A DNA stretch of 64,000 bases from an uncultured Gammaproteobacteria bacterium (lineage in GTDB: Bacteria > Patescibacteriota > Microgenomatia > Daviesbacterales > UBA10151), in the NCBI GenBank assembly GCA_964387865.1, contig CAYLXC010000001.1:50597-114596 (forward strand), in the 5' to 3' direction. The translations under genes were made by a program, and so were the position numbers. Within the stretch, counting starts at the first letter, position 1. Each line of letters starts with the position of its first letter. Below, one piece after another: positions 2,831-35,595 of this stretch. The notes beneath the pieces are model-generated. The model did no database searches. It had not been told where the DNA came from and saw nothing but the letters and a program-made list of their open reading frames with translations.

Positions 2831-4486
2831 ATGGCCAAATTAAATCAAAGAGCTGCTGCCCATATTCTTCTTCTTGTAACAGCAATAGGCATTATTGCAT
2901 TAACTCTGGTTACTAATACATTCTCTTTTAAGGACAAACTATTCTCCCAGCTTTTTCCCAAATCTAAATCATTCGCATCACAATTGTATGAATCTACTCC
3001 TCTAAATGAATTATCCATGTACCCTAAAGCAAGTAATAATATTCAGTTATTTGCCTATTTTGGGGTAAATAAATTCCAACAAAACGTTCCTCAATTCGTC
3101 AAGGATTATCTGGCAAAAGAAATGGACTTTTTTTTATTTGATTTCCAACATGATTACCCCTGCATTGATAGTGGAAATTACGATTTTCCCTGTCCAAACA
3201 ATAATTATAATTTTTCAGGGCTTTGGAATTTAACAAGCGATCTTAAAGCGATTTTACCCAACAAATTAAAAGTTATTATTCATGGCTGCGAAGCATTTGG
3301 GAATCACCCCTGGTGCCCCTCTTTTCCAATACTTACTGATAATGACATTATGCACAACAAAGATAGTTCTATTAAAAGGTATATCTTAGGTTCAAGACTT
3401 TTTAATGTAAATAATCCCACAACCAGAGATAAGATTGCTTTGTATTGGAGAGATACATTTAATACAAAAAATGTAGATGGAGTTGTTTTTGATTCATTTA
3501 ATCCTGATCAGGCAGCCTCACTTGGCAGGGGGTCCTGTTTGGATGATACTTGCGACACCACTATTAATCCTGCGTCATTTATTACTGATCGGGCCGAATT
3601 CCAAAGCTGTTTGGAAGGACCTTGCGAAACTTATGATTTTTGGACAGAAAGGATGGGAGCATTTGGAAGGGAAACTATGAATTCCTCTCCTGGAAGAGAA
3701 GTTATATATAATGGTTTCTCACTGGATCCAAATTCAAAATACGGTCCTTACAACAGTAATTTTACGGATTACTTCACAGGAGCTTTAATTGAATATCCCC
3801 AGGAAATGATATTTAGCCCGGAAAAGTTTAAAAACTACTTGGACGCCATTAATTATATTCTGAACAAAGGCAAAAAATTATTCATTATTTTTCAGCCTCA
3901 GCTATCAAGCATCCCCTCATTAAATATCAATTTGAATTTGGAAAGATTTTTCCTTGCAACTTATCTTCTGCTTCAAAAGAATTCTTATACTTTTTTTAGC
4001 TACCATCCGGGAGAACCATATAGATTGGATTCTTCGGAATGGCTTTATTTTTATAAAGACTGGAATTTGGATTTTGGTACACCTTTAGATTTCTACAGAA
4101 GTGTAAACTCGCCTGATTTATATTACCGCCAATATAGCAATGGCTATGCAGTTGTTAACTCATCAGATTTTTCTGTAAACTTTCCGTTCCCGCCGGGTGA
4201 ATGGCGTGAGTGGGATCCTTATGATAGTTCAAAAGGTGTTAGCGGATCAACAGCAATACCACCTAAAACTGGAAAATTTTTCTTTGAAGCTTCCAAGTTC
4301 CCAACTCCTTCCCCTACTCCCCCACCCAAGATAGGCGATATAAATGGGGATGGGGCTGTAAATGTAGTGGATTTCTCGATTCTATTATCTAAATGGAATA
4401 CAGCAGATATAGGTGCTGATTTAAATGGAGACGGAATAGTTAATGTAGTTGATTTCTCAATCCTTTTATCTAATTGGGGGACATAG
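2831..4486 (+). CDS. secreted/membrane-anchored protein (551 aa) with a C-terminal tandem type-I dockerin module after a Pro/Thr linker; the central domain is possibly glycoside-hydrolase-like
   Basis: N-terminal signal-anchor (MAKLNQRAAAHILLLVTAIGIIALTLV), linker PTPSPTPPPK, and two dockerin repeats GDINGDGAVNVVDFSILLSKW / DLNGDGIVNVVDFSILLSNWGT (DxNxDGxVNxxD calcium-binding pattern). Confidence 0.7.
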   Translation: MAKLNQRAAAHILLLVTAIGIIALTLVTNTFSFKDKLFSQLFPKSKSFASQLYESTPLNELSMYPKASNNIQLFAYFGVNKFQQNVPQFVKDYLAKEMDFFLFDFQHDYPCIDSGNYDFPCPNNNYNFSGLWNLTSDLKAILPNKLKVIIHGCEAFGNHPWCPSFPILTDNDIMHNKDSSIKRYILGSRLFNVNNPTTRDKIALYWRDTFNTKNVDGVVFDSFNPDQAASLGRGSCLDDTCDTTINPASFITDRAEFQSCLEGPCETYDFWTERMGAFGRETMNSSPGREVIYNGFSLDPNSKYGPYNSNFTDYFTGALIEYPQEMIFSPEKFKNYLDAINYILNKGKKLFIIFQPQLSSIPSLNINLNLERFFLATYLLLQKNSYTFFSYHPGEPYRLDSSEWLYFYKDWNLDFGTPLDFYRSVNSPDLYYRQYSNGYAVVNSSDFSVNFPFPPGEWREWDPYDSSKGVSGSTAIPPKTGKFFFEASKFPTPSPTPPPKIGDINGDGAVNVVDFSILLSKWNTADIGADLNGDGIVNVVDFSILLSNWGT

Positions 4487-4528
4487 AAAGTTGACTTTAA
4501 TCCCAACTTAGCTGTTAATTAAACTAGA

Positions 4529-6316
4529 GTGAATAAATTAAATCAGGCAGGTGCTTCTCATATACTCATTCTTGTTGCTGTTGTAGGCTTTCTCTTTTTT
4601 CTACTAATATCCAACGCTTTCGACTTTAAAGATAAACTTTTTAGCAATTTATTCCCTAAACCTCCATCACATGCAGTTTCTCCATATAAAATCGGTGCCT
4701 ATTATTTTGGTATGTGGTCATCTACAGATACTGTACCGGATCATCTGGATAATGTTGAAAGAGTTTATGGAAGACGAGATCTGTGGGGAGGAGTAAAAGA
4801 CTTTTATGGTTTAGAGCCGGGAATCCCAAAAGATACCAGAGGCTGGACCGGAGATTTTTCTCATCTCAAACCGGAAATTGGATACTATGATTACAGTATT
4901 TCTGGTCCTACTATTCTAGAACAACAAATAATTCAGGCTAAACAAAACGGGTTAAGTTTTTTTAATTTTTACTGGTATTGGGATTCCACATATAAAAAAG
5001 AATTTCTTAGCAGTGGAATAAATTCTTTCTTGCAAGCAACCAATAAAAATCAGCTGCAGTTTATGATTTCAATTGCAGCTCATCCTTGGTGTAATGGCCC
5101 TACATGCCTATCAATACCTCTTCAGGATGGAGTGCAAACTACTCAAATTATTGTGGATAAATATTTCTCTCAACCAAATTATCTTAAAACTCAAAATGGA
5201 AGACCGATTATATTTATACTTGACTCACGAGGTATGTATGGAGGAACAATACAAGATACTCAAGACTATATTTCCCTTTTAAAACTAACTTCACAAAACA
5301 GATTAGGTGTTGAACCAATTGTGCTGATTTCCGTTGAAAATCCAGATGCCAGATCAATTACTAATACTGATGGATATTCTTGCGTAGCCACCTATATTCA
5401 ACCTTCTGGAGCACAATCATATCAATATTATCTTGATAATTTTACAAACCATTTTGCAACTTTCACTGATAAACCGCTCATGCCATGTTTTGTGAGTAAC
5501 TTTGATGAACGTCCAAGGCAAGATATATCAATAACAGATAGGAACCAAATACGATATTTTAGTGATTTTTCAGAAACACTTTTTAGGGATGGGGTTACTC
5601 GGGTTAAACAATACATGGATTCCCAAACAAATGAACTTAGTAAGATATTAACAATTTATGCATGGAATGAATGGCATGAAGGTGGAATAATAGAGCCTAA
5701 TGTGAGAGATAAAAATAAAAGGTTAAGCATAATAGCTGAAACATTTAGCTTAACAACAAACCCTATCGGTACTTTTGATCTTGCAAACTGCTCCTTAATA
5801 GAAGGCTGGACCTGTGATGCTGATGATTATAATGCTACGTTGAATGTTCACCTTTACAAGGATGGGCCCTATGGAAGTGGGATATTCATCGCATCAACAT
5901 CTGCAAATATTACAAGGGAGCCAGCTGTTGGAAGTTCTTGTGGAGGAAATCCCAATCATGGATTTTCTTATGTAACACCACCCTCACTAATGGATAGCCA
6001 GCCGCATACAATTTATGCATATGGTATAGATATCCCTTCCGGAACTAATTCCATTCTAAATGGTAATCCTAAAACTATTCAGTGTAATCCCACTCCCTCA
6101 CCTACCCCAACCCCAAGTCCTTCCCCATCTCCTACTCCTACCCCTACTCCACCTCCTAAGACTGGGGATATTAATGGAGATGGATCCGTAAATGTAGTTG
6201 ATTTCTCGATCCTTTTATCTAAATGGAACACATCAGATTCTGCATCTGATCTAAATGGAGATGGGATAGTTAATGTAGTAGATTTTTCTATACTTCTATC
6301 TAACTGGGGGACGTAA
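4529..6316 (+). CDS. paralogous secreted protein (595 aa) with the same N-terminal anchor and C-terminal dockerin module but a different central (putative carbohydrate-active) domain
   Basis: N-terminus MNKLNQAGASHILILVAVVGFLFFLL...DFKDKLFSNLFPK is near-identical in pattern to the upstream gene. Linker PTPSPTPTPSPSPSPTPTPTPPPK. Dockerin repeats GDINGDGSVNVVDFSILLSKW / DLNGDGIVNVVDFSILLSNWGT. The last ~170 nt of each gene are nearly identical at the DNA level. Confidence 0.7.
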   Translation: MNKLNQAGASHILILVAVVGFLFFLLISNAFDFKDKLFSNLFPKPPSHAVSPYKIGAYYFGMWSSTDTVPDHLDNVERVYGRRDLWGGVKDFYGLEPGIPKDTRGWTGDFSHLKPEIGYYDYSISGPTILEQQIIQAKQNGLSFFNFYWYWDSTYKKEFLSSGINSFLQATNKNQLQFMISIAAHPWCNGPTCLSIPLQDGVQTTQIIVDKYFSQPNYLKTQNGRPIIFILDSRGMYGGTIQDTQDYISLLKLTSQNRLGVEPIVLISVENPDARSITNTDGYSCVATYIQPSGAQSYQYYLDNFTNHFATFTDKPLMPCFVSNFDERPRQDISITDRNQIRYFSDFSETLFRDGVTRVKQYMDSQTNELSKILTIYAWNEWHEGGIIEPNVRDKNKRLSIIAETFSLTTNPIGTFDLANCSLIEGWTCDADDYNATLNVHLYKDGPYGSGIFIASTSANITREPAVGSSCGGNPNHGFSYVTPPSLMDSQPHTIYAYGIDIPSGTNSILNGNPKTIQCNPTPSPTPTPSPSPSPTPTPTPPPKTGDINGDGSVNVVDFSILLSKWNTSDSASDLNGDGIVNVVDFSILLSNWGT

Positions 6317-7652
6317 GAAATTTATGTGCTTCCTTAATCCTTTTTATACTTTCCTCCTCGCCTAAAATTTTCATGCATTCAAAAAGCGGTGGGGTTACAA
6401 TCTGGCCTGAGATTGCAACCCTAATTAGTTGAAACATATCAGATGCTGACAAACCTTCTTGACTAGCCAATTCCCTGAAAGTTTTTTCAAACACCTCTGC
6501 TTTCCATGGTTTTTCCATTCTTTCCAGCTCTTCCGCAACTCTTCCAATCTTTAATCTTAAATCTTTAATCCCTGCCTTGCCGGCAGGCAGGTTTAATCTA
6601 TTAAATACCTCTATTTCATATTCCGGCTTTTCCCATAAAAAATCTGTTAATGGCACAAAATCTGATAATTTCTTTATCCTCTCCTTTATTAAAGGTATAA
6701 CTTTTCCAATCTCTTCCTCTGTTGGATGATCCAAGGCTCCCCCTGAAATATTTTTTAAATATTCTAAAATTTGAGATTTAAGATTTGAGTTTTGAGATTT
6801 CCTTATGTATTCCCCATTTAACCACTCAAGTTTTGTTACATCAAAATACGCTGATGAAGCATTCACGTCTTTAAAATCAAAAAGTTTTATCATCTCCTCT
6901 ATTTCAAAAATTTCTTTCCCTTCAGGATGAGTCCAGCCTAAAAGTGCCAAAAAATTAAGTACAGCCTCTTTTAAATACCCATCATCCCTAAACTCTAGTG
7001 TGGATTTTGCCCCATGTCTTTTGGATAACTTAGCTCTGTCAGATCCAACCAAAACAGGCATATGGGCAAATTGCGGATGAATCCACTCAAAAGTATCATA
7101 AATCATCAAATGTTTCGGGGTTGAAGAAATAAACTCATTACCCCGGATTACATGAGTAATTTCCATTAAATGATCATCCACTACATTCGCAAAATTGTAA
7201 GTCGGATACCCGTCTGATTTTAGAATCACAAAATCTTCTTGGGTATTATTAGGAAAACTAATTTTTTTATCTCCTACCAAATCTTGCCAAACAGTTTCCC
7301 CTTCCTTCTTAACCTTAAACCTTATTGCTTTTCCGTCTTTATAAGCAAACCCTTTTTCTAAAAGCTCAAAAGCATATTTTTTATAAATATCCAGTCTTTC
7401 GGATTGAATATAGGGTGCATATGGACCACCGATATCAGGCCCTTCATCATACTCTAAACCTAACCATTTTAAAGTTTGATAAATTTGCTCAACACTTTCC
7501 GCAACAAATCTTTCCCTATCCGTATCCTCAAGCCTTAATATGAATTTCCCTCCCATTTTTTTTGCAAACACAAAATCAAATAGCGCTTGCCAGGCTGTTC
7601 CAATATGTGGTGCGCCTGTTGGGGATGGCGCAAGTCTAACCCTAACTTCCAT
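6300..7652 (-). CDS. gltX: glutamate--tRNA ligase
   Basis: Class I aaRS signatures: PSPTGAPHIG (HIGH) and KLSKR (KMSKS). Typical GluRS N-terminal catalytic-domain organisation. 450 aa. The 3' end overlaps the convergent dockerin gene by 17 nt. Confidence 0.9.
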   Translation of the reverse strand: MEVRVRLAPSPTGAPHIGTAWQALFDFVFAKKMGGKFILRLEDTDRERFVAESVEQIYQTLKWLGLEYDEGPDIGGPYAPYIQSERLDIYKKYAFELLEKGFAYKDGKAIRFKVKKEGETVWQDLVGDKKISFPNNTQEDFVILKSDGYPTYNFANVVDDHLMEITHVIRGNEFISSTPKHLMIYDTFEWIHPQFAHMPVLVGSDRAKLSKRHGAKSTLEFRDDGYLKEAVLNFLALLGWTHPEGKEIFEIEEMIKLFDFKDVNASSAYFDVTKLEWLNGEYIRKSQNSNLKSQILEYLKNISGGALDHPTEEEIGKVIPLIKERIKKLSDFVPLTDFLWEKPEYEIEVFNRLNLPAGKAGIKDLRLKIGRVAEELERMEKPWKAEVFEKTFRELASQEGLSASDMFQLIRVAISGQIVTPPLFECMKILGEEESIKRIKEAHKFLTSPS

Positions 7653-7681: not shown

Positions 7682-8725
7682 ATGACCTTGACCCAAACTG
7701 CCGTTCTTACCAAACAATCCATAAAACTTACAATTATCGCCTTAATTGTAATTATATTAAGTTTTATTGGCTACAAAATCTGGTATGCATATTATCTTTC
7801 AACCCTTCCTCCTGTTGAAGAAAAGCCAGACACAAAATTTGGTAAATTACCGCCTCCTAATTTTCCAAAAATTGATGTTTCATCTTCAAACTTCTCATAT
7901 AATCTGGACACAACAACAGGCTCTTTACCAAAATTAGGAGATGAAGGTTTTGAAAAAATTATCAAAGTTTACTTTGTAATAAAACCTTTAGCAAGTTTAC
8001 TTTCTTCTGAAAGAAGCCAAACCCTTGCTCAAAAGTTTGGCATTTCTACCCCTCCACAAATTATATCTGAAACAAACTATGCTTTTAGAGAAGCAGGGAA
8101 AAATCTTAATGTGGACTTGGATAGCGGAAATTTTACTTATATAAATCTAATTAGCTCACCTCCTAATGAGCAGTTGGATGATGATAATAAACTTGTAAAA
8201 GACTTTGAAAATATTTTGGCAAACTTGGGAGTTTTGAAAAACGAGCTTAGAGAAGGACGAAGTAAAGTAACACTTTTAAAAAAAGAGGGGGCAAACTATA
8301 TTCCTACTACGCTAAGAACTGAAGCTACATCAGCCCAAATATCCCTTTGGCCTAAAGATTTGGATAAAAGATCAATTTTTACTTCGGATTTCAATAAATC
8401 TTTAGTTAATGCCCAAATTTTTGACTCTTCATCTAATTTGGATAATTATTTATCAATAAACTTTACTAATTGGCCAATTGAGAAAGAAGTTTTTGCAACT
8501 TACCCTACCAAAAGCCCGGAGGATGCTTTTAATGACTTAAAAGGAGGAAAAGGAGCAATTATTTTAAAACCTGCAAAAGGAGAGGTTTCCGTCACATCCA
8601 TCTATTTAGGATATTATCTTTCAGATACTTATACTCCCTACTTACACCCCATATATATTTTCGAAGGTCCCCAATTTGTAGCATATGTTTCAGCAGTAGA
8701 TTCTAATTTTGTTGAGGCCAAATAA
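7682..8725 (+). CDS. hypothetical membrane-anchored protein (347 aa)
   Basis: N-terminal TM helix (LTIIALIVIILSFIGYKIWYAYY) followed by a soluble domain. No recognised motif. Confidence 0.5.
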   Translation: MTLTQTAVLTKQSIKLTIIALIVIILSFIGYKIWYAYYLSTLPPVEEKPDTKFGKLPPPNFPKIDVSSSNFSYNLDTTTGSLPKLGDEGFEKIIKVYFVIKPLASLLSSERSQTLAQKFGISTPPQIISETNYAFREAGKNLNVDLDSGNFTYINLISSPPNEQLDDDNKLVKDFENILANLGVLKNELREGRSKVTLLKKEGANYIPTTLRTEATSAQISLWPKDLDKRSIFTSDFNKSLVNAQIFDSSSNLDNYLSINFTNWPIEKEVFATYPTKSPEDAFNDLKGGKGAIILKPAKGEVSVTSIYLGYYLSDTYTPYLHPIYIFEGPQFVAYVSAVDSNFVEAK

Positions 8726-11079: not shown

Positions 11080-11124
11080 TACTTAAAAACTAGATGAATG
11101 CATAATAGCAGTTTAAATCCAATC

Positions 11125-11153
11125 TTGACAAGGATTGAATTAGCTGATATATT
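11125..11153 (+). promoter_or_regulatory. sigma70-like promoter (TTGACA - 17 nt - TATATT)
   Basis: Consensus -35 hexamer at 11125-11130 and -10 hexamer at 11148-11153. An ATG follows 7 nt downstream. Confidence 0.5.
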
Positions 11154-11160
11154 ATCTTTT

Positions 11161-11208
11161 ATGCAAAACCTAAGAAGATATTTTAATTTCTTCTTTACCT
11201 TCGCTTAA
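11161..11208 (+). CDS. putative 15-aa Phe-rich leader peptide MQNLRRYFNFFFTFA
   Basis: Near-leaderless ORF directly after the promoter. Its stop codon sits at the base of hairpin A. The composition (FNFFFTF) resembles E. coli pheL ([15 protein letters not shown]). Confidence 0.35.
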   Translation: MQNLRRYFNFFFTFA

Positions 11209-11277
11209 ACGGAGGTTGGTTTTTGTGTAAAAAAACCAACATAACTTAACCTCCGTTTATAAGTGGAGGTTTTTTTT
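11207..11277 (+). promoter_or_regulatory. attenuator-like leader unit 1: hairpin A (aaacggaggtt...aacctccgttt) and alternative terminator B (acctcc..ggaggt + T8) whose 3' arm is the SD for the ATG at 11278
   Basis: Direct reading: 'ggaggt' (11211-11216), 'acctcc' (11249-11254), 'ggaggt' (11265-11270), 'tttttttt', then ATG. Confidence 0.5.
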
Positions 11278-11520
11278 ATGGAGAAAAGAAAGGAAGGTGA
11301 AAAAATGGTAGAAAGAATAATTGTAAAACCCGAATATCCCGAACAAAAAGGTATTACTCGGGCTTTAGCTGATCTTGATCGAATTCAAGTAGATATTAGA
11401 GGAAGAATGATTGGTTCAGAGCCAGTCGCACAGACAGGATCATCAAGTTTACAAACTAGAGTAAAAATATCACTAGAATATCCAGATCCTACTGAACGAA
11501 AACCATATTTCGTTCGCTAA
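11278..11520 (+). CDS. hypothetical small protein (80 aa from ATG 11278; table ORF starts at GTG 11263)
   Basis: SD GGAGGT lies 8 nt upstream of ATG 11278. The product has no recognised motif. Confidence 0.45.
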   Translation: MEKRKEGEKMVERIIVKPEYPEQKGITRALADLDRIQVDIRGRMIGSEPVAQTGSSSLQTRVKISLEYPDPTERKPYFVR

Positions 11521-11522
11521 AC

Positions 11523-11552
11523 TTGACAAAATACATAAACTGCCCTTATAAT
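11523..11552 (+). promoter_or_regulatory. sigma70-like promoter (TTGACA - 18 nt - TATAAT)
   Basis: Consensus hexamers at 11523-11528 and 11547-11552. An ATG follows 11 nt downstream. Confidence 0.5.
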
Positions 11553-11563
11553 TTAAATAGTCT

Positions 11564-11668
11564 ATGTCAAAAGTTGAAGTAATTGATTTAAGAAAAGTAG
11601 AAGTTATTCTTGGCCTCCTTATTTTAGTGCTCGTTACGGGCACTTTTTTGGGAGGTCTTTTTAGGTAA
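11564..11668 (+). CDS. putative 34-aa Leu/Val/Ile-rich leader peptide MSKVEVIDLRKVEVILGLLILVLVTGTFLGGLFR
   Basis: It starts right after the promoter. Its last codons (gggaggtcttttt) form the 5' arm of hairpin A of unit 2. Branched-chain residues (L8, V6, I3) are enriched, as in leu/ilv leader peptides. Confidence 0.35.
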   Translation: MSKVEVIDLRKVEVILGLLILVLVTGTFLGGLFR

Positions 11669-11720
11669 AAAATAACCTAAAAAAGAAAGTAATCAGACCT
11701 CCCTAACGGGAGGTTTTTTA
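11650..11720 (+). promoter_or_regulatory. attenuator-like leader unit 2: hairpin A (gggaggtct...agacctccc) and terminator B (cctccc-taac-gggagg + T6) that contains the SD of the next gene
   Basis: Direct reading of the sequence. Terminator B is a 6-bp GC stem with a 4-nt loop and a U6 tract, immediately followed by start codon TTG 11721. Confidence 0.5.
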
Positions 11721-12011
11721 TTGGGAAAAAATATGAGTGAAAGATTTAGACCAGATACAATACATAGAAGGGCCTATAAAATAGCCTCAGAAACCTTTGC
11801 GAATGTCGAAAGTTTAACTGATGAACAAGTAGGAGTAGTAGAAAATGACAGAAGAGGTAGAAGAAGAATGATCCATTCATTACAGCAAAGTCTGAAGGAA
11901 ACTTCAGGAGAAGAACGAAGACGGTTACTTGAGCAGTTACATGATCTGGAATCGCATCAATTCGCATCAAGATATGCAATCGAAAAACGTTCAGGTAAAA
12001 GATTTTTTTAA
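11721..12011 (+). CDS. hypothetical small basic protein (96 aa, Arg-rich)
   Basis: The ORF follows SD GGGAGGT at optimal spacing from start TTG 11721. No recognised domain. Confidence 0.45.
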   Translation: MGKNMSERFRPDTIHRRAYKIASETFANVESLTDEQVGVVENDRRGRRRMIHSLQQSLKETSGEERRRLLEQLHDLESHQFASRYAIEKRSGKRFF

Positions 12012-12041
12012 TATAACGAAAGAAAGGGGGTGTTTAAATTT

Positions 12042-12248
12042 ATGACAGAACGTGGAGAAATACCTGTTGAACAGCGTGGAATCTTGAATTCAACCATGGA
12101 GCCAGGAGATGTGGCATTCGGGACATTGGATATATACTACAATCCCGGCCCTGACAAAAGCGTGCCAAATTCAGAAGATGGAAATGGAACTGTACGTGAT
12201 CCTGAACCAGTAGAAGTAGTCACAGATATACGCGGTGTACCTTTTTAA
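12042..12248 (+). CDS. hypothetical small protein (68 aa from ATG 12042; table ORF starts at 12030)
   Basis: SD AAGGGGGTG lies 7 nt upstream of ATG 12042. Confidence 0.35.
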   Translation: MTERGEIPVEQRGILNSTMEPGDVAFGTLDIYYNPGPDKSVPNSEDGNGTVRDPEPVEVVTDIRGVPF

Positions 12249-12291
12249 TTCTAAAAACGACCTATTGCACAGAAAAATCAATTACGGTAGC

Positions 12292-12378
12292 ATGTATTCC
12301 ATATGCATACTAAAGCTGAAATTATTATTGGAATTATTATTACTTCTAAAAAGGGAGGTTGTTTGGCGTAAGTCTTAA
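12292..12378 (+). CDS. putative 28-aa Leu-rich leader peptide MYSICILKLKLLLELLLLLKREVVWRKS
   Basis: Ten Leu including LLLELLLLL. The ORF ends inside the 5' arm of hairpin A of unit 3. It is preceded by a weak TTGCAC-17-TAGCAT promoter-like pair. Confidence 0.4.
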   Translation: MYSICILKLKLLLELLLLLKREVVWRKS

Positions 12379-12431
12379 AAAAAGATTCCGCAACAAACCT
12401 CCTGAAAGGGAGGTTTTTTAATGAGAAAAAT
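12348..12431 (+). promoter_or_regulatory. attenuator-like leader unit 3 upstream of the cimA/leuA-family gene: hairpin A (gggaggttgtttggcg...cgcaacaaacctcc), terminator B (acctcc-tgaaag-ggaggt + T6), and an 8-codon uORF (ATG 12421, MRKIWQKL) overlapping the cimA start
   Basis: Direct reading of the sequence. SD GGGAGGT (12408-12414) is optimally spaced for ATG 12421. The cimA ATG at 12432 is in another frame. Confidence 0.5.
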
Positions 12432-14003
12432 ATGGCAGAAACTTTAAAAATAGTACCTTACGATACAACGTTAAGAGATGGTGCTCAGGATGCAAGGGCT
12501 AGACTCTCTGTAAAGAAGAAACTAAAAATTGCTCAAAGATTGGACCAACTTAGGTTCCCCTTTATAGAAGGTGGTTGGCCTGGGGCAAATGAAATTGATA
12601 CAGAATTTTTTAGACAAGCAAGAGGTATGTTTGAGAATAGCCAGTTTGTTGCGTTCGGAATGACCGCAAGAATCGGTGGCAGACCTGAAAACGACGATGG
12701 GCTAAATGCACTTCTTGAGTCTGGAACAAATTTCATCACTATTTTCGGAAAAACATGGGAGACTCATGTCCAAAATGCGTTAAGAGCACCCAGCTATAAG
12801 AACTTGGATACTATTTTCGAAAGTGTTCGCTTTCTAAAAGCTGAAGGACGAGAGGTAATATTTGATGCAGAACACTGGTTTAGTGGTTATAGAGAAAATC
12901 CAGATTATGCTCTTGAATGTTTAGAAGCAGCAGAAGCTGCTGGTGCCAGAACACTAGTTCTTTGTGATACCAATGGAGGCAGTAATCATAGATTTGTAGA
13001 AAGTGGGGTTAAAGCAGCGAGAAGTAGATTTCCAGATACAGAGTTGGGGATCCATGTACATAACGACAGTGCTCTAGCGGTTATTAACACAATCGTTGCA
13101 GTAGAAGCAGGAGTAATACAGGTTCAAGGGACTATTAACGGCTCCGGAGAAAGGGCAGGAAATGTGGATCTGTGCCAAGTATTGCCAACAGCAGAATTTA
13201 AATATGAAATACCTAGCGGTATAGATTTGAGAACTTTAACTAAAGCATCTCGCTTTGTTGAAAGTATAAACGAGATACCTGTACCGGATAATACTCCATA
13301 TGTTGGCAGAAATGCGTTTGCCCACAAGGGAGGAGTACATCAATCCGGCCAGAGGCGAGCTGATAAAAGGCAAGCGAGTGATGAGGCGGCATATGAACAT
13401 ATAGAACCAGCTTTAGTAGGAAATAAGAGAATTTATATTATGTCAGAACAAGGCGGGTCGACAAATATAGAGATTATGGCAGAAAAGCATGGATTTCAAG
13501 TTGACAGAACTGATCCATTATTTACCTTACTCGTTGAAAAAATGAAGCAAAAAGGTATTTTTGGAGATGCACAGGAGTATCTCCTGCTCTATGAAACTTT
13601 AACAAATGAACAAATACCTTTTGATGTTTTAGAAAGCCGTGTTGTAGACGAACGGGGTAGAGATCCTGAAGCTAGCATTAGAGTGCGGGTAAATGGCGAC
13701 ACTCTACATGAAGCTAATTTAGGCAAAGGTCTTATAAATGCTTTTGATAATGCTTTAAGAAAAGCTTTATTACAAAAGTATAAGGAAGTTGCAGACATAA
13801 CACTTGTTCCAGGAAGTTATAGAGTTACACTTCCCATGGGGGATAGTGATTCAGCTGCTGAAGTGGAAGTATACGCTGAGTTTGCCGCAGATGGCCAACA
13901 ATGGAGTTCACGTGTTCGCGGAACGGATCAACAACGTGCCGGAGAAGATACTTTTATCCAGGCTTACCAATATTACATTTTAAGAAGGCGTTCAGGTTTC
14001 TAA
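12432..14003 (+). CDS. cimA: (R)-citramalate synthase / 2-isopropylmalate synthase family protein (DRE-TIM metallolyase with C-terminal LeuA-dimer regulatory domain)
   Basis: N-terminal DTTLRDGAQ hallmark, HxH metal site (IHVHND), 523 aa with a C-terminal regulatory domain typical of CimA/LeuA. Composition is GC-richer than the flanking genes. Confidence 0.8.
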   Translation: MAETLKIVPYDTTLRDGAQDARARLSVKKKLKIAQRLDQLRFPFIEGGWPGANEIDTEFFRQARGMFENSQFVAFGMTARIGGRPENDDGLNALLESGTNFITIFGKTWETHVQNALRAPSYKNLDTIFESVRFLKAEGREVIFDAEHWFSGYRENPDYALECLEAAEAAGARTLVLCDTNGGSNHRFVESGVKAARSRFPDTELGIHVHNDSALAVINTIVAVEAGVIQVQGTINGSGERAGNVDLCQVLPTAEFKYEIPSGIDLRTLTKASRFVESINEIPVPDNTPYVGRNAFAHKGGVHQSGQRRADKRQASDEAAYEHIEPALVGNKRIYIMSEQGGSTNIEIMAEKHGFQVDRTDPLFTLLVEKMKQKGIFGDAQEYLLLYETLTNEQIPFDVLESRVVDERGRDPEASIRVRVNGDTLHEANLGKGLINAFDNALRKALLQKYKEVADITLVPGSYRVTLPMGDSDSAAEVEVYAEFAADGQQWSSRVRGTDQQRAGEDTFIQAYQYYILRRRSGF

Positions 14004-15597: not shown

Positions 15598-17034
15598 ATG
15601 CATTATACACTACCTAATGAGGTAAAAAATATTTTAGATAAATTTAGAAAATCCGGATACCAAATTTATATTGTTGGAGGGGCAGTACGTGATCTTTTGA
15701 TGGGAAAAGAGATTAAGGACTGGGATTTTACAACAGATGCTAAACCTGAGGAAATCTTGAAAGTAATCCCGGAAGGTTTTTACGATAATAAATTCGGAAC
15801 AGTAGGAGTACCAACAGAGAACACCTCGAAGGTGGGCTCTGACTCCTTCGAGGTGAATGATGAAATCATGGAGATCACAACAATGAGAAAGGAAGGTAAG
15901 TATACTGATTTTCGCCACCCATCCGAAGTTTCCTGGACCAACAAAATTGAGGAAGATTTGGCAAGAAGGGACTTTACCATAAATGCTATGGCTTTGGGAA
16001 TCCCAAGCAAACACCTCCGAGGTGAAGATAATGGTGTAACACCAAGAGAACACCTCGGAGGTGAAATCCTGGAAACTGTGGATCCCTTCAGCGGCCAAAA
16101 TGATATTAAAAACCACCTCATCAGGGCTGTCGGAGACCCAACCAAACGCTTCCAGGAAGATGCTCTTCGTCTTATCAGAGCAATCAGGATTGCAACTGAA
16201 TTGGAATTTGACATAGATAAGGAAACATTTGAAGCCATCAAAAAAAATGCCAATCTTTTAAAAGAAATTGCCTGGGAAAGGATAAGAGATGAACTATTTA
16301 AACTCCTTGCATCCACGAATCCATACATGGGTACCTTGAAACTTAGGGAAGCGGGGATACTGCAAATGATTCTTCCAGAGCTTGAGCGCTGTTTTGGGAT
16401 AGTTCAGGAAGGTCCAAAACATGACAGAACTTATGACATTGGTGAGCACTCACTACTAACTTTAAAACATACCCCATCTTCCGATGCACTGACTAGATTT
16501 GCTGCACTTCTTCATGACATTGGCAAACCGGATACAGTGGAAAAGGCTCAAGATGGGAATGTCACATTTTATCAACATGATGTAGTTGGTGGAAATTTGG
16601 TTTTAAAAATAGCAAAAAGATTAAATTTATCAAGAAAACAAACAGATAAATTATTTAGATTAGTAAGATTCCATATGTTTACAGTTGCAGAGAATCAGAC
16701 GGATTCAGCAATAAGAAGATTTATTAAAAATGTAGGTCTGGAAAATATTGAAGACATGATGGCCTTAAGAGTTGGCGACAGGTTGGGAGGAGGGACACAA
16801 ACGGAAACCTCTTGGAGAATGGAAAAATTCAAAGAAAGAATTAAAGAAGTATTAAAAAAGCCATTTTCACTTTCAGATTTAAAAGTAAATGGTAATGATG
16901 TAATGGAAATTCTAAAGATTAAACCCGGCCCAAAAGTAGGTGAAATCCTCCAAAAACTCTTTGAAGAAGTCTTAGAAGATGCTTCTAAAAATAACAAAGA
17001 ATATTTATTAAAAAGGCTCCAAGAACTTAAATAA
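15598..17034 (+). CDS. cca: CCA-adding tRNA nucleotidyltransferase with C-terminal HD domain
   Basis: PolyA-pol/CCA head (GGAVRDLLMG...DWDFTT, RRDFTINA) and HD motif LLHDIGK. Contains three palindromic repeat inserts (15823-15861, 16023-16035, 16061-16073). Confidence 0.85.
   Translation: MHYTLPNEVKNILDKFRKSGYQIYIVGGAVRDLLMGKEIKDWDFTTDAKPEEILKVIPEGFYDNKFGTVGVPTENTSKVGSDSFEVNDEIMEITTMRKEGKYTDFRHPSEVSWTNKIEEDLARRDFTINAMALGIPSKHLRGEDNGVTPREHLGGEILETVDPFSGQNDIKNHLIRAVGDPTKRFQEDALRLIRAIRIATELEFDIDKETFEAIKKNANLLKEIAWERIRDELFKLLASTNPYMGTLKLREAGILQMILPELERCFGIVQEGPKHDRTYDIGEHSLLTLKHTPSSDALTRFAALLHDIGKPDTVEKAQDGNVTFYQHDVVGGNLVLKIAKRLNLSRKQTDKLFRLVRFHMFTVAENQTDSAIRRFIKNVGLENIEDMMALRVGDRLGGGTQTETSWRMEKFKERIKEVLKKPFSLSDLKVNGNDVMEILKIKPGPKVGEILQKLFEEVLEDASKNNKEYLLKRLQELK
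15823..15861. repeat. palindromic element family B copy ('cacctcgaagg-tgggctctgactc-cttcgaggtg') inserted in-frame in cca
   Basis: It differs from the aspS copy by one nucleotide in the loop. It encodes ENTSKVGSDSFEVND. Confidence 0.75.
16023..16073. repeat. two short palindromes, 'cacctccgaggtg' and 'cacctcggaggtg', which are reverse complements of each other, in-frame in cca
   Basis: Both are preceded by 'gaacacctc' and related to family B. They encode the cca-specific insertion ...KHLRGEDNGVTPREHLGGE... Confidence 0.6.
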
Positions 17035-31512: not shown

Positions 31513-32707
31513 CCCGAAAAAAATATTAATTCTAATTTTACTGCTGACAACATTTTTACGACTATTCCGTTTGGATTTTCCAAATAAATATATTTTTGAT
31601 GAGGTTTACCACGCATTTACTGCCAAAGAATATTTAGCCTGGCATAAAGAGGCTTGGGAATGGTGGACAACACCTCCTCCTGGAGTTGCTTATGAATGGA
31701 CCCACCCTCCTTTAGCAAAAGAAATCATGGCAATTTCTATGTTTACTCTGCATTCCCAAGATGGATGGGCATGGCGTTTACCTGGAGCATTACTTGGAGT
31801 TTTATCAGTTTATATAGTTTATCTTTTGGGTATTAAATTGCTAAATAACCAACTAGCAGCATTAATTGCGGCATTTGTATTTTCCATAGATGGATTAAAT
31901 TTTGTCCAATCAAGAACTGGCATGAATGATATTTATTTTGTCACCTTCATGCTATGTAGTTTACTACTTTTGCTAAATAAAAAGTTTCTACTTTCTTCTA
32001 TTTTTCTAGGACTTGCCATATCAGGCAAGTGGGCCGCAGTCTACACCTATTTAATAATAGTACCGCTTATACTTTTGTATCATAAGTATTTGCAGATTTT
32101 ATATTTTATTGCAGTTCCTATTATCGTTTACTTAATAATCTACATCCCATTTTTCCTACAAGGACACGGTTTAGAACAATTTATCCATCTTCAACAGCAA
32201 ATGTGGTGGTATCATACAAATTTGAAAGCAACTCATGGATATTCTTCACCTTGGTGGTCATGGCCTCTAAATTTATATCCTGTTTGGTATTTTGTAGATT
32301 ACCAAAAAAATAACATTGCCAATATTTTTGCATCCGGTAATCCTGTTATTTTTTGGTTAGGATTCGTATCAATTGCCTTAACTTCTTGGGAAGCAGTTAA
32401 GAAAAGATCAAAAAATTTGATGATCATTCTCTTAGGATTTTTTATTTTCTGGTTACCCTGGGCAATTTCTCCCAGGATCATGTTTTTATATCATTATTCC
32501 CCATCTGTCCCTTTTATGTGTTTGAGCTTAGGATATTTATTAAGTTCTATTCTTAAAGATAGAGAACGTCAAAAATTCTTAATTATTCTGCTTACTTTGT
32601 GTATACTTTCCTTTATTTTAATTTATCCATTTTTAACAGCCATTCCAATTCCTAGAGAAATGGTTAAAATTTTCTTTTCAACAAACCTAGGTAAAAATCC
32701 TTTTTAA
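31493..32707 (+). CDS. GT39-family (PMT-like) phospholipid-carrier-dependent glycosyltransferase
   Basis: N-terminal loop motif FDEVYHAFTAKEYLAWH (DE motif of PMT/GT39) and a multi-TM body. Confidence 0.7.
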   Translation: MKIKNLSPKKILILILLLTTFLRLFRLDFPNKYIFDEVYHAFTAKEYLAWHKEAWEWWTTPPPGVAYEWTHPPLAKEIMAISMFTLHSQDGWAWRLPGALLGVLSVYIVYLLGIKLLNNQLAALIAAFVFSIDGLNFVQSRTGMNDIYFVTFMLCSLLLLLNKKFLLSSIFLGLAISGKWAAVYTYLIIVPLILLYHKYLQILYFIAVPIIVYLIIYIPFFLQGHGLEQFIHLQQQMWWYHTNLKATHGYSSPWWSWPLNLYPVWYFVDYQKNNIANIFASGNPVIFWLGFVSIALTSWEAVKKRSKNLMIILLGFFIFWLPWAISPRIMFLYHYSPSVPFMCLSLGYLLSSILKDRERQKFLIILLTLCILSFILIYPFLTAIPIPREMVKIFFSTNLGKNPF

Positions 32708-33501
32708 GATGAGGCTGATGAATAACTTCTTAAAGACCAATTCCATACTCTTAATGAAAGATAAAATATAGCAATTGAAAAAATCACTGCATAAATTATT
32801 AAGTAAGGATTTAACAAACCCAATAAGGCCTTAGTTGGAAAGCTCATCATTATTCCTACAGGTATAACAAATGTCAAAAATCCCCTTAAAGGTTCTCTAT
32901 AAATATCTATGGGGAATCTTCCCATTCCAACAATATCTCTATACATCATTATTGCATGATCTATTTCCGTTGTTACCACAGCCAGTGACAAAACTAGAAT
33001 ATGAAAAGATAATGCAATTAAAAAGGCACAAGAAATTAAGATAATATAGATAAAAATATTAACTGGATTAATTAAATTCAACTTGTCCATAAAAAATATA
33101 ATTGCAAAAATTAATGGGAAAAGCGTAATAAAATCCATAACATCCGGCCCCCCGAAAAGAGAACGAAATAAAACATTAACAGGTCTTATAAGATAGAAAT
33201 CAAAATTTCCACTAACAACCGCTTGTCTAAAACGGTATACTTCACGAAACAAAAGTTGGGCTAAAATATCCACCAGATTAAAAGATAAAAAGAAAAAAAT
33301 TGTCTGATCCAAACTATATCCTGCTAAAACTTTAGTTTTTCCAACTAATATGATAATAAAAAACGTGTATACCCCAAATCTTAAAATTTTTCCAAGTAAA
33401 AAAATAATTAGAGCAAATCGAACAGAAATTTGTGTTTGAAATCCATTTATTGCAAAACGCAGCCATATTTTAAAATATTTTTTTGCCAATTTAATAACCA
33501 T
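32704..33501 (-). CDS. ABC-2 family transporter permease
   Basis: Six-TM ABC-2 pattern. In an operon with the ABC ATPase. Confidence 0.6.
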   Translation of the reverse strand: MVIKLAKKYFKIWLRFAINGFQTQISVRFALIIFLLGKILRFGVYTFFIIILVGKTKVLAGYSLDQTIFFFLSFNLVDILAQLLFREVYRFRQAVVSGNFDFYLIRPVNVLFRSLFGGPDVMDFITLFPLIFAIIFFMDKLNLINPVNIFIYIILISCAFLIALSFHILVLSLAVVTTEIDHAIMMYRDIVGMGRFPIDIYREPLRGFLTFVIPVGIMMSFPTKALLGLLNPYLIIYAVIFSIAIFYLSLRVWNWSLRSYSSASS

Positions 33502-34285
33502 AAGCAGTATATTTTCTTAAGCCAGCCTGCAAAATTTTAATCATAAAATACCAGGAAACCAAAACCCAAATACATAAAATAGAAAACCCATAAAATACCT
33601 GCTCCAAAGGAAGATTTCCCAGATAAATTTTGGCAGGAAAGTAAATAAAATAGGGAAATGGGGTCAAAAGCAAAATATCTGCAATACGCTCAGGTAAAAT
33701 ATCTATGGGAAAAAGTCCGCCTCCAAATCCCTCCAAAAGTATGCTCATTAAAAATAACGGACCCCAGGCATTTTCAACCCAGAAAGCTAACATACTTATG
33801 ATAAAAGCTATGGCAAAATATAAAAGAAGTCCCAGGAGAATTGACAAAGTGAAAAATATTAATACATTAGGTTCACGCTGAAATATAATGTTAGGTTTTA
33901 AAAGAATTACTAGTAAAGTTATTTCAACCAATACAAATAAAATATTTAGTAATTTATCGGCCAAATCTCTTGAAAAATAGTATTGGATAAATCCCAAAGG
34001 TTTGACTAAAAAATTAACTATCGAGCCCTCATTAATTTGTCCTGCTAGATCAATCGCTCTTGAAGAAAGTATAATTGCCCTTATTAGGCTTGAAACCAAA
34101 ATATATGTAAGAATTGAGGCTTTTGTATATCCAAAAACTTCAGTCTGTGATTGAAAAACACTCCACCATATAAAGTAGACCAAAAGTAACTGTAAAACTG
34201 ACCTGACTCTCCAAAGAAAAAAATTTAGTCTGTAGATCAAACCCTGTTCCCAGGATATTTTAAATACTGCTAAATATTTATTCAT
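33491..34285 (-). CDS. ABC-2 family transporter permease
   Basis: Six-TM ABC-2 pattern, paralogous to the downstream permease. Confidence 0.6.
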   Translation of the reverse strand: MNKYLAVFKISWEQGLIYRLNFFLWRVRSVLQLLLVYFIWWSVFQSQTEVFGYTKASILTYILVSSLIRAIILSSRAIDLAGQINEGSIVNFLVKPLGFIQYYFSRDLADKLLNILFVLVEITLLVILLKPNIIFQREPNVLIFFTLSILLGLLLYFAIAFIISMLAFWVENAWGPLFLMSILLEGFGGGLFPIDILPERIADILLLTPFPYFIYFPAKIYLGNLPLEQVFYGFSILCIWVLVSWYFMIKILQAGLRKYTAYGY

Positions 34286-34288
34286 AAA

Positions 34289-34618
34289 TCACGAGGATTT
34301 ACCAAAAATCCAGGGAGTGTTTGTTTTAATCTTTCTAGAAATTCCCGACTTTTGTAATGCTCCACGTAAATTCCCCTTCTCAAGCATTCTGGCAACCCTT
34401 ACAACCGTATCTGTTCCAACTTTCACTTGTTTGGCAATATTTCTTATTGATAAACCATCTTCCAATAAATTAACAATTTGGAATCTGTTTTTGAGCATCC
34501 GAAGTTCTGAATGGGTTAGCAGTTGTCTTAAAATTTCATCTGGTATATGTAAATTAATATCTCTTTTAGGTTTAGCCATGTATGGATTCATAGTGACACA
34601 TGCAATAGAAAGTGTCAA
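34289..34618 (-). CDS. TrpR/YerC-YecD family HTH protein
   Basis: HTH region LSIRNIAKQVKVGTDTVVRV and size (109 aa) match YerC/YecD Trp-repressor-like proteins. Confidence 0.55.
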   Translation of the reverse strand: MTLSIACVTMNPYMAKPKRDINLHIPDEILRQLLTHSELRMLKNRFQIVNLLEDGLSIRNIAKQVKVGTDTVVRVARMLEKGNLRGALQKSGISRKIKTNTPWIFGKSS

Positions 34619-35595
34619 GTAGTTTTACCGCTGCTAAAAATTTTGCGAATAATTTCTTCTATAGCCGGATCTTCAATAGTTAAATCTGCAACATCAAAAT
34701 TAGATAGGAGACTACTTGTTATCTCAGATATCTTACTTTTTTTAACCTGAATCTTAGCATGAAATCCATCAAACTCCTCTAAATTACCAAAGCTCCTTAA
34801 CTTTCCTCTTTCGATTTCTTTTTCAAAATCAATATTTATTACCTTAAATGGTGCATACCTTTGAACAATTTTTTCCAAAGACCCATCATATAAAATCTTC
34901 CCCTCATTGATGATAATGATCCTTTTACAAAGAGCCTTAACATCGCCCATATAATGGGATGTTAGAATAATCGTCGCCTTAAACCTTTGATTATATTCTT
35001 TTATAAAATCCCTCATAGTTTTTTGTGCAACCACATCCAACCCAATTGTTGGCTCATCCAAAAATAAAACTTTGGGGGAGTGAAGTAAGGCTGCTACCAG
35101 CTCACATTTCATCCTTTGTCCTAAAGACAATTTTCTAACCTGGATTTTAAGGATATCCTCAATATCAAGCATCTCTGATAATTCCTTCACCACTTTTTTA
35201 AATCTATCTTCCCCTATCTCATAAATTTCTTTATTTAAAATAAAACTTTCCCAAGGAGGTAAATCCCACCAAAGTTGATTTTTCTGACCCATAATTAAAG
35301 AAAATTGCTTTTGAAATTCAGCTTGCCTTTTAAATGGATCAAAGCCCAAAACTTTTACTTCTCCAGAGGTAGGATACAAAAGTCCGGATAGTACTTTCAA
35401 AGTAGTTGTCTTACCAGCGCCATTAGGACCAATAAATCCAATTAATTCTCCTTCATTAATTTCAAAAGAAATATTATCAACTGCCTTTACGTCATAATAT
35501 TTACGAGAAAATAAGGATTTAATAGATCCCCAAAAACCCGGTTCTTTCTGATGAATACTGTAATATTTCTTTAAGTTTTTAACTGAAACAGCCAC
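34615..35595 (-). CDS. ABC transporter ATP-binding protein
   Basis: Walker A GPNGAGKTTT, signature LSLGQRMK, and Walker B LFLDEPT. Confidence 0.85.
   Translation of the reverse strand: MAVSVKNLKKYYSIHQKEPGFWGSIKSLFSRKYYDVKAVDNISFEINEGELIGFIGPNGAGKTTTLKVLSGLLYPTSGEVKVLGFDPFKRQAEFQKQFSLIMGQKNQLWWDLPPWESFILNKEIYEIGEDRFKKVVKELSEMLDIEDILKIQVRKLSLGQRMKCELVAALLHSPKVLFLDEPTIGLDVVAQKTMRDFIKEYNQRFKATIILTSHYMGDVKALCKRIIIINEGKILYDGSLEKIVQRYAPFKVINIDFEKEIERGKLRSFGNLEEFDGFHAKIQVKKSKISEITSSLLSNFDVADLTIEDPAIEEIIRKIFSSGKTT

Follow-up and report, generated by a model that had tools for sequence, protein, structure and literature searches.

Probable leader-peptide attenuators, three of them in tandem, ahead of citramalate synthase, transporter and small-protein genes in a Daviesbacteria-like bacterium

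Background

Leader-peptide (ribosome-mediated) transcription attenuators of enterobacteria include trpL, pheL/pheA, pheM/pheST, ilvL/ilvGMEDA, ivbL/ilvBN, leuL, thrL and hisL, and those of Actinobacteria comprise the trp and ilvB attenuators of Corynebacterium and Streptomyces, trpS and leuS of Streptomyces, as well as the leaderless poly-Cys short open reading frames (ORFs) of mycobacteria. Here we analyse a 64-kb stretch of contig CAYLXC010000001.1 (the window, to which all positions refer) from an uncultured bacterium whose closest genomes are those of Candidatus Daviesbacteria in the Candidate Phyla Radiation (CPR; citramalate synthase, CimA, 59 % identical), and report four units that are very probably classical attenuators of this kind. 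The enterobacterial systems have been modelled previously (PMC1183508). In Actinobacteria, classical attenuators have been described, some of them before aminoacyl-tRNA synthetase genes (PMC1262725), as have leader ORFs translated from leaderless mRNAs (bioRxiv 10.1101/834739). In the ilv-leu locus of Staphylococcus aureus, a branched-chain-rich leader peptide and a terminator lie upstream of genes for branched-chain biosynthesis (PMC5794164).

Like the enterobacterial attenuators, the units combine a short ORF containing a run of cognate codons, four segments that can pair as 1:2, 2:3 and 3:4, and an intrinsic terminator ahead of the first structural gene; termination is predicted to be favoured by a ribosome at the stop codon, and read-through by a stalled one. 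Unit 2, whose Leu/Ile/Val leader is multivalent, is in particular much like ilvL. Unlike them, the leader ORFs lack a Shine-Dalgarno sequence (SD) and begin 7-11 nt past the -10 box, and the next start codon directly adjoins the terminator. The genes behind the terminator (hereafter the cargo) do not form whole biosynthetic operons but include a single citramalate synthase gene, an operon with an MFS transporter and genes for orphan small proteins. The host is a different one too, a CPR bacterium similar to Daviesbacteria, and the units are members of no described sequence family: the Rfam model Phe_leader (RF01859) aligned full-length to units 1-4 with 29.3, 27.7, 28.6 and 26.8 bits, below its threshold of 55, and no other Rfam leader family was matched at E up to 10.

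The other known systems are similar in part. A Trp-Trp leader before a TrpRS-like gene in one related locus (L099; L-numbers, such as L093 or L101, denote fetched loci of relatives) recalls Streptomyces trpS; however, the phylum is another one, sequence similarity to the actinobacterial attenuators is absent, several of the latter lack terminators whereas the units described here are complete, and ours stand in tandem, as cassettes with variable cargo. With the T-boxes of Firmicutes they share the signal (tRNA charging) and the output (a terminator and antiterminator before genes for amino-acid biosynthesis, transport or synthetases), but they contain no T-box sequence or specifier loop, and the signal would pass through a translated ORF rather than tRNA binding. 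T-box RF00230 gave no match in the window scan at gathering thresholds or in a permissive scan of 11080-12440. The S. aureus ilv-leu leader resembles the present ones as a branched-chain-rich peptide followed by a terminator in a non-proteobacterium, yet it is a single locus together with CodY, whereas several specificities and cargo beyond biosynthesis are found here.

The mechanism is textbook and would not surprise a specialist; what is new is where it occurs, namely in this host group, in a tandem array and with this cargo, and further interest lies in leader ORFs that are probably leaderless and in small-protein cargo depleted in the cognate amino acid. Full-text literature searches returned no paper in which such attenuation is described for the Candidate Phyla Radiation or Patescibacteria, and none in which a leader peptide is tied to the regulation of citramalate synthase (cimA).

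Layout of the four units

Each unit contains a putative promoter, a leader ORF (15-34 codons across units) and four alternately complementary segments: segment 1, CCUCC-like and inside the ORF; segment 2, GGGAGG; segment 3, CCUCCC; and segment 4, GGGAGG followed by U6-8. Units 1-3 are located between the divergent aspS and the convergent recJ, in a window whose gene set is otherwise of a housekeeping kind (aspS, a gltX-like gene, recJ, the CCA-adding enzyme, secDF, recA, RNase P RNA, ribosomal proteins, metK). The codon clusters of the window leaders are FNFFFTF in unit 1, LGLLILVLV in unit 2, IIIGIII in unit 3 and YWY in unit 4.

An earlier note on this DNA had described three tandem units built from a promoter, a short ORF, two alternative hairpins (A, and a terminator B) and a T tract, and all of these elements are in place at the coordinates given. 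Its outline has nevertheless to be amended in several respects. First, a fourth unit, at 49120-48945 on the minus strand, had been missed. Second, the alternative hairpins A and B are present, but each unit has four segments and not three, as segment 1 in the leader ORF pairs with segment 2. Third, consensus or near-consensus promoters were claimed throughout, which is correct for unit 1 (11/12) and unit 2 (12/12) but not for unit 3, whose promoter (TTGCAC-17-TAGCAT) is weaker. The distance of 7-11 nt from promoter to short ORF was confirmed: the leader ATGs of units 1, 2 and 3 lie 7, 11 and 9 nt past the -10 box, without an SD.

The arrangement is far from what composition would produce. The pattern ACCTCC-N3-14-GGAGGTTTTT has three matches in the 64 kb (11249, 11697 and 12397), all of them in the region of units 1-3, and not one in 100 dinucleotide shuffles of the window. 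GGAGGTTTTT alone has four copies, one per unit, the fourth at 48956 on the minus strand within unit 4. Furthermore, the RNAs of units 1, 2 and 3 are more stable than their shuffled counterparts (z = -6.0, -4.8 and -3.2). The elements, with helices and free energies (dG) as predicted by folding, are as follows.

Unit 1
11125-11153, plus strand: promoter, TTGACA, 17-nt spacer, TG-TATATT (11/12 matches, with TG extension)
11161-11208, plus strand: leader ORF MQNLRRYFNFFFTFA with stop, Phe/Tyr-rich; Phe-rich homologues in L093 (MNISRQTWFSFFYFTFQKEGGLK) and L103 (MQKTTVQAFIFYFTFRKEGGC)
11197-11216, plus strand: segment 1:2 hairpin, ACCTTCG / CGGAGGT, spanning the last leader codons and the stop
11206-11258, plus strand: antiterminator (segments 2:3), AAACGGAGGTTGG...AACCTCCGTTT, enclosing a further hairpin; dG about -22.7 kcal/mol
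11250-11277, plus strand: terminator, CCTCCG / TGGAGG, with T8 tract 11270-11277, dG -7.6 kcal/mol
11278-11520, plus strand: cargo ORF1, 80 amino acids (aa), an orphan with 1 Phe in 80 residues

Unit 2
11523-11552, plus strand: promoter, TTGACA, 18-nt spacer, TATAAT (12/12 matches)
11564-11668, plus strand: leader ORF MSKVEVIDLRKVEVILGLLILVLVTGTFLGGLFR with stop, Leu/Ile/Val-rich, ilvL-like; homologous leaders in L003, L093, L101 and L103
11612-11657, plus strand: segment 1:2 structure, GGCCTCCT ... GGGAGGTC, enclosing a small G+C hairpin
11650-11703, plus strand: antiterminator, GGGAGGTCT...AGACCTCCC, dG -22.8 kcal/mol
11698-11719, plus strand: terminator, CCTCCC / GGGAGG, with T6 tract 11714-11719, dG -10.7 kcal/mol
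11721-12011, plus strand: cargo ORF2, start TTG 11721 or ATG 11733 (92 aa), of a small three-helix family
12042-12248, plus strand: cargo ORF3, 68 aa, proposed to share a transcript with ORF2; 51 % identity to a 90-aa ORF in L104

Unit 3
12265-12293, plus strand: putative promoter found by eye, TTGCAC, 17-nt spacer, TAGCAT; relatives have TTGACA at the same site
12303-12371, plus strand: leader ORF MHTKAEIIIGIIITSKKGGCLA with stop at 12369-12371, six of seven codons of a run being Ile (IIIGIII)
12353-12403, plus strand: antiterminator, GGGAGGTTGTTTGGCG ... CCGCAACAAACCTCCT, dG -19.4 kcal/mol
12398-12419, plus strand: terminator, CCTCCT / GGGAGG, with T6 tract 12414-12419, dG -9.0 kcal/mol
12421-12447, plus strand: mini-ORF MRKIWQKL with stop, 8 codons, 1 nt past the T tract, overlapping the cimA start
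12432-14003, plus strand: cargo, citramalate synthase-like gene (cimA), 523 aa, with HMGL-like, HCS_D2 and LeuA_dimer domains

Unit 4
49091-49120, minus strand: promoter, TTGACA, 18-nt spacer, TG-TACAAT (11/12 matches)
48998-49081, minus strand: leader ORF MKILNDNFSCAYWYLSSGRFIPVVNKS with stop, Tyr-Trp-Tyr codons at segment 1; a similar leader, MKIHQLNFGYNYFWFTSRKGGLLMS, in L101
48945-49041, minus strand: switch, with the 1:2 hairpin at 49041-49024 and the antiterminator at 49030-48962 (dG -24.3 kcal/mol)
48967-48952, minus strand: terminator (dG -10.5 kcal/mol), with T7 tract 48951-48945
47164-48944, minus strand: cargo, a 162-aa protein (48944-48456) and an MFS transporter (48456-47164)

The leaders of units 1 and 2 had been called Phe-rich and Leu/Val/Ile-rich, respectively, and so they are, with homologues in relatives. 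The leader of unit 3, in turn, had been taken for a Leu-rich peptide with its stop at 12376-12378, and here the frame was wrong: that ORF exists, its Leu codons arising where the +1 frame runs through the ATT repeats, but its start lies upstream of or inside the promoter, and we rejected it. The promoter-adjacent, conserved ORF at 12303-12371 is Ile-rich, and the Ile frame was chosen because the ATG stands next to the promoter in the Ile frame of all eleven Ile units.

Citramalate synthase is the enzyme with which the synthesis of isoleucine from pyruvate begins. The unit 3 cargo scores 445.9 bits against TIGR00977, just under the cutoff of 450, compared with 231 bits or less against the models of LeuA or homocitrate synthase, and its close relatives carry the name citramalate synthase in their sources.

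Leader type and regulated gene in relatives

For comparison, loci were fetched around relatives of CimA (50-61 % identity) and of ORF2, giving a set of 23 units from about 11 related genomes, of which some tabulations cover 19. Short ORFs of the kind that the earlier note had picked out are conserved, all 23 units having leaders with cognate codons. Position, length and cognate-codon runs of the leader ORFs are maintained across relatives, and the remaining peptide drifts.

Wherever the sequence ahead of cimA was recovered from a relative (9 loci), it contains an Ile-rich leader with the same promoter spacing, and Ile-rich leaders occupy the place of unit 3 in L003, L091, L093, L095, L096, L097, L098, L100, L103 and L104. 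The leaders before cimA in relatives read MSKQRAQIIIEIIIASPKGGLLR, MSKQVGQIIIAIIASPKGGLLR, MNIQNSISIIIAIITSRKGGFFA, MNAQRIEIIIEIITSKTGGFFA, MRLSSANIIIEIITSPLGGLLT, MDFRSNIIAEIIITPKGVSLA, MKIARQIFVIIIDHPLGRIG and MGSLALRIKIHTIIISR. Conservation among them is limited to the Ile run, the length and the frame, the N-terminal residues varying freely, and the runs persist although some of their Ile codons are synonymous variants (ATT, ATA, ATC), as is to be expected of a sensor ORF that is translated. Directly behind cimA, three loci have a gene with an isoleucyl-tRNA-synthetase-like domain set.

Other leaders vary with the gene behind them. In Daviesbacteria-like relatives, a Leu leader (LLGLLLLALLL) lies upstream of a leuA-like gene. 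In L101 (1262-1129, minus strand), the aromatic leader MKIHQLNFGYNYFWFTSRKGGLLMS, with the cluster FGYNYFWF, stands ahead of the DAHP synthase gene, and in the opposite direction from it a Leu/Ile/Val leader is followed by a gene of the ORF2 family. In L099 (1793-1922), a Trp-Trp leader, MDVRIFAHWWYRNN (HWWY), and a terminator stand upstream of a class Ib TrpRS-like synthetase gene. Thus, the leader amino acid matches the cargo wherever the function of the latter is known: Ile with cimA, Leu with leuA, Phe-Tyr-Trp with DAHP synthase and Trp with the TrpRS-like gene. No other single argument speaks as strongly for the ORFs acting as amino-acid sensors as this agreement of leader composition with gene function.

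As an outgroup we used distant cimA loci (44 % identity or less) obtained from a metagenome scan with a CimA alignment, whose patterns were too general. Two of them, both non-CPR and with a cimA only about 40 % identical to that of the window, have Ile-rich short ORFs followed by long terminator hairpins before cimA (L080 3316-3463, MKSSIGIIIPIIIDIIGIRPGGVGG; L041 134-309, MNLIYRNIIAIITGVGIV...). The Ile/cimA pairing is therefore not unique to the Daviesbacteria-like lineage.

A separate feature was noticed upstream of the Ile-cimA unit of L095, where a long intergenic region (3560-3880) has a consensus-like promoter and several hairpins, the last of them terminator-like and followed by a 239-aa ORF; this region may represent a further riboregulator.

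The switch

We propose that each unit operates as follows. From a sigma-70-type promoter, an mRNA would begin at, or a few nucleotides before, the leader AUG, and initiation would probably be leaderless; the mRNA of unit 1, with its ATG only 7 nt past the -10 box, is probably so. Sensed would be Phe/Tyr by unit 1, Leu/Ile/Val by unit 2, Ile by unit 3, and the supply for Tyr-Trp-Tyr codons by unit 4. With ample charged cognate tRNA, the ribosome would reach the stop codon and cover segment 2, or 1:2 would re-pair behind it; segment 2 then being unavailable, the 3:4 intrinsic terminator would form and transcription would end before the cargo gene. A ribosome stalled on the cognate codons would instead cover segment 1 and free segment 2 for the more stable 2:3 antiterminator, upon which RNA polymerase would read through into the cargo. 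In the read-through RNA, segment 4 would be single-stranded 6-9 nt before a start codon and may serve as a ribosome-binding site.

Masked folding, in which the nascent RNA up to the U tract is folded to minimum free energy with the ribosome-covered part kept unpaired, agrees with this scheme in nearly all of the 23 units. When the ribosome is placed on any codon of the main cognate cluster, the 2:3 helix forms and the terminator is lost or, in three units, partly lost (22/23); when it is placed at the stop codon, all units but one form the whole terminator, the Trp unit of L099 keeping four of five pairs. This supports the attenuation of the trp/leu/phe type that the earlier note had envisaged, with a ribosome at the leader stop blocking the 5' arm of hairpin A. 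The comparison of A and B by folding, which it had proposed as well, gave two mutually exclusive helices: the 3' arm of the antiterminator overlaps the 5' arm of the terminator by 4-7 nt in 19 of 19 units, and the former is the more stable one (-18 to -30 vs -6 to -13 kcal/mol). If the spacer from codon run to terminator is shuffled, an antiterminator arises in just 1-16 % of trials.

The geometry is equally regular. In 15 of 19 units, the distance from the start of the antiterminator 5' arm to the stop codon is 12-19 nt, and the terminators, placed between leader ORF and cargo, consist of G+C stems of 5-7 pairs followed by T6-T8. The gap from terminator to cargo start measures 0-26 nt in 18 of the 19, which leaves no room for a promoter, and cargo expression therefore needs read-through. 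The stems themselves vary among relatives (CCUCCC/GGGAGG, CCUCGCC/GGCGGGG, CCCCGCA/UGCGGGG, CUAGCC/GGCUAG and CUCGC/GCGGG), and segment 2 varies in step with them. Every feature of classical leader-peptide attenuation that can be read from a sequence is present in these units, and from them we infer termination and ribosome stalling.

Several observations, however, weigh against this interpretation. The Leu/Ile/Val unit of L101 did not switch in the minimum-free-energy model, and unit 4 has just three aromatic codons at its critical place. The promoter of unit 3 was not reported by the consensus scan and is weak. The free RNA of several units folds as 1:4 + 2:3 and not as 1:2 + 3:4, and the default "off" state would therefore depend on the order of co-transcriptional folding. 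In units 1, 2 and 4, the link between leader and cargo consists solely in depletion of the cognate amino acid (see below), a point that counts against units 1 and 2. Finally, in a test of fixed-column covariation on a model-derived alignment, 81 % of cells were paired vs 79 % in shuffles, the arms being mostly conserved and G-rich; the covariation score was reached by 19 of 500 shuffles, variant stems being out of register in that alignment. Since both MAFFT and covariance-model alignments misregister the variant stems, per-sequence folding, shuffles and direct stem comparison were used instead.

Start codons after the U tract and control of translation

The 3' arm of the terminator had also been claimed to be the SD of the following gene. 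As far as spacing goes this is right, for the start codon lies 0-2 nt past the T tract in all 19 tabulated units, and the G-rich arm is thus at SD spacing. In about half of the units, among them 1, 2 and 4, the adjacent start is that of the cargo itself or in frame with it. In the others it opens an ORF of 2-8 codons (MEKI, MGKI, MERRCL or MD, and MRKIWQKL in unit 3, each with a stop), which ends at or overlaps the cargo start codon, several times as ATGA, and some of the cargos preceded by such mini-ORFs have a GGAGGTG of their own. Unit 3 is a case in point: the ATG expected after its T tract exists, at 12421, but it opens the mini-ORF, and cimA itself starts at 12432.

Against an essential role as SD stand, besides these mini-ORFs, the relatives with non-SD arms (GGCUAG, GCGGG/GCGGGG, GGCGGGG), which retain the design, and the scarcity of SDs in the window, where 58 of 68 long ORFs lack one at 3-12 nt (a rough count, starts being those of the longest ORF). 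As a further point against it, several window genes have a TATAAT 6-11 nt before the ATG, for instance the divergent pair 6300-7652 (minus strand) and 7682-8725 (plus strand), which suggests that leaderless mRNAs may be common in this organism. A combined transcriptional and translational switch is therefore put forward as plausible, and leaderless initiation and any role of the SD are inferred from spacing and motif.

A comparable layout occurs once more in the window, upstream of metK (43938-45047). The region 45053-45187 (minus strand) matches the SAM-I model RF00162 with 29.1 bits, below its threshold of 44.4 (E 6.6e-5), with a conserved core, and in its terminator-like hairpin (45075-45053) the 3' arm, GAGAGG, is followed by T7 directly before the metK ATG. 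It looks like a divergent SAM riboswitch in which terminator and ribosome-binding site are merged in the same way.

Might the units, then, act on translation only, the 3:4 hairpin hiding the ribosome-binding site without terminating, and the leader ORF opening it by coupling or stalling? The constant start-codon distance, with a 3' arm that is often GGGAGG at ideal SD spacing, would suit such a mechanism, and so would the metK leader with its merged layout. Yet a T6-8 tract right after a G+C stem is present in 23 of 23 units, including those with non-SD arms; about half of the adjacent start codons open mere mini-ORFs; and with so few SDs in the window, their sequestration is unlikely to be the main lever. 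We consider exclusively translational control improbable, and the two modes may coexist.

Other explanations

The peptide of unit 2 invites another reading, in which the short ORFs are independent small-protein genes (for membrane peptides or toxins) with their own terminators, the codon runs serve peptide function and the downstream genes are expressed by constitutive leakage. This peptide is hydrophobic, has 34 residues, is conserved over its full length (MSKVE.IDL+K.E...GGLFR) and was annotated as a gene in L002 by one pipeline. However, the conserved C-terminal GGLFR overlies RNA segment 2 (GGGAGGUCUUUUUAGG), and because of this coincidence RNA constraints explain its conservation. The Ile, Phe and aromatic leaders, moreover, are poorly conserved outside their runs, the runs follow the function of the downstream gene from one pairing to the next, and small-protein genes would leave the stable, terminator-overlapping antiterminator with no role; the proposal is accordingly very unlikely.

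A similarly slight probability attaches to a trans-acting factor as the agent that sets the switch, be it uncharged tRNA in a T-box-like manner, an RNA-binding protein like TRAP or PyrR, or the anti-SD of the 30S subunit on GGGAGG. The repeated GGGAGG and CCUCC segments do resemble SD and anti-SD, and unit 1 gave a weak match to a PyrR site (27.4 bits, threshold 54). Nevertheless, no T-box or other riboswitch family was found even at E up to 10, conservation is confined to helices, ORF and codon runs with no conserved unpaired core, relatives with non-GGAGG stems retain the design, and the codon runs offer a simple explanation of specificity for five amino-acid classes. That terminator-like palindromes have spread as a dispersed repeat, or by chance, without regulatory function can practically be dismissed, for although the units are alike enough for one covariance model, which suggests duplication, every one of them is on the sense strand, with a promoter and short ORF before it and a gene start behind it, none is found inside a gene or in opposite orientation within 64 kb, the model (R1) recovers the four window units and those of relatives but no further one in the window and none in 558 kb of outgroup loci, and the codon runs differ among units in a functionally meaningful way.

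Cargo proteins and amino-acid depletion

Ribosome-mediated attenuation, our preferred explanation, would place a set of obscure proteins under the sensors. ORF1, ORF2 and ORF3 have no Pfam or NCBIfam match, the 162-aa protein of unit 4 has none in Pfam, and word-indexed searches for homologues of ORF1 and of ORF2 returned the query only. ORF1 has an alternative in-frame start at 11305, preceded by its own GGAAGGTG. A full HMMER search with ORF2 recovered five representatives at 38-47 % identity, and L093 has a more distant member; in L093, L101 and L103, where the upstream region is complete, the ORF2 relatives each follow a Leu/Ile/Val-type leader, and L104 holds a relative too, listed with the same leader type. 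The predicted fold of ORF2 is a three-helix bundle (predicted local distance difference test score 87), and comparison of the model with the PDB gave no significant match. We also considered whether pheA, leuA or aro genes, once lost, might survive as remnants in the small ORFs, and rejected the idea, as tblastn showed no trace of them.

Between aspS and recJ lies a variable island, as seen when L103 (1215-2950, syntenic) and L104 (1-1590) are compared with the window (11080-14003). The order of leaders, Phe, Leu/Ile/Val and Ile, is shared, and the cargo differs: Ile leaders nearly identical to that of the window precede a 66-aa protein in L103 and a 176-aa and a 69-aa protein in L104, in place of cimA. 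Sensor cassettes and cargo have therefore been shuffled.

The cargo proteins are poor in the amino acid that their leader would sense. Baselines in the following comparison are the long and the small genes of the window; sample sizes are small, and some of the proteins are homologous to one another.

Phe cargo (292 residues): Phe 1 residue (0.3 %); long genes 5.8 %, small genes 3.1 %; P against long genes 5e-7
Leu/Ile/Val cargo: Leu 5.7 %; long genes 11.2 %, small genes 8.2 %; P against long genes 1e-8
Small Ile cargo: Ile 5.1 %; long genes 9.2 %, small genes 7.6 %; P against long genes 0.006
CimA from nine genomes: Ile 5.4 %; long genes 9.2 %, small genes 7.6 %; P against long genes 2e-22

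Against the small-gene background, depletion of Phe, in which three Phe-controlled proteins are pooled, has an estimated P of about 1e-3. Levels are normal for Tyr and Val in the Phe cargo and for Leu and Val in the Ile cargo. Depletion fits proteins that are made when the sensed amino acid is scarce, and we take it as supporting evidence only.

The host group is generally held to rely on external sources for most amino acids. If the units act as proposed, these uncultured bacteria would have tight coupling of transcription and translation and working leaderless initiation, and genes responding to a shortage of Ile, Leu, Phe or aromatic amino acids could be recognised from a marker readable in sequence. 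Likewise, several hypothetical small-protein families and an MFS transporter would each be attached to a named amino-acid starvation, by compact and portable sensor cassettes of about 150 nt. A bolder and rather doubtful extension, which we put forward tentatively, is that these are modular cassettes whose orphans (ORF1, ORF2, ORF3 and the 66/69-aa families) are effectors of amino-acid starvation, with the arm, U tract and start codon forming a translational gate; in that case, a starvation response would be read directly from tRNA charging.

Further observations in the window

In the region of the CCA-adding enzyme ORF (15822-16063, minus strand), four palindromes of the form CACCTC(C/G/T)(C/G)GAGGTG lie within about 240 nt, and similar sequence is found at L093 7095-7130. 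At 34289-34618 (minus strand), a 109-aa helix-turn-helix protein of the Trp-repressor family (YerC-like) is encoded inside an ABC-2 transporter operon (32704-35595). Finally, two large proteins encoded at 2831-6316 (plus strand) end in a C-terminal dockerin type I domain, one of them also having a WbsX/GH99-like domain, an unusual surface or secreted machinery for a bacterium with a small genome.

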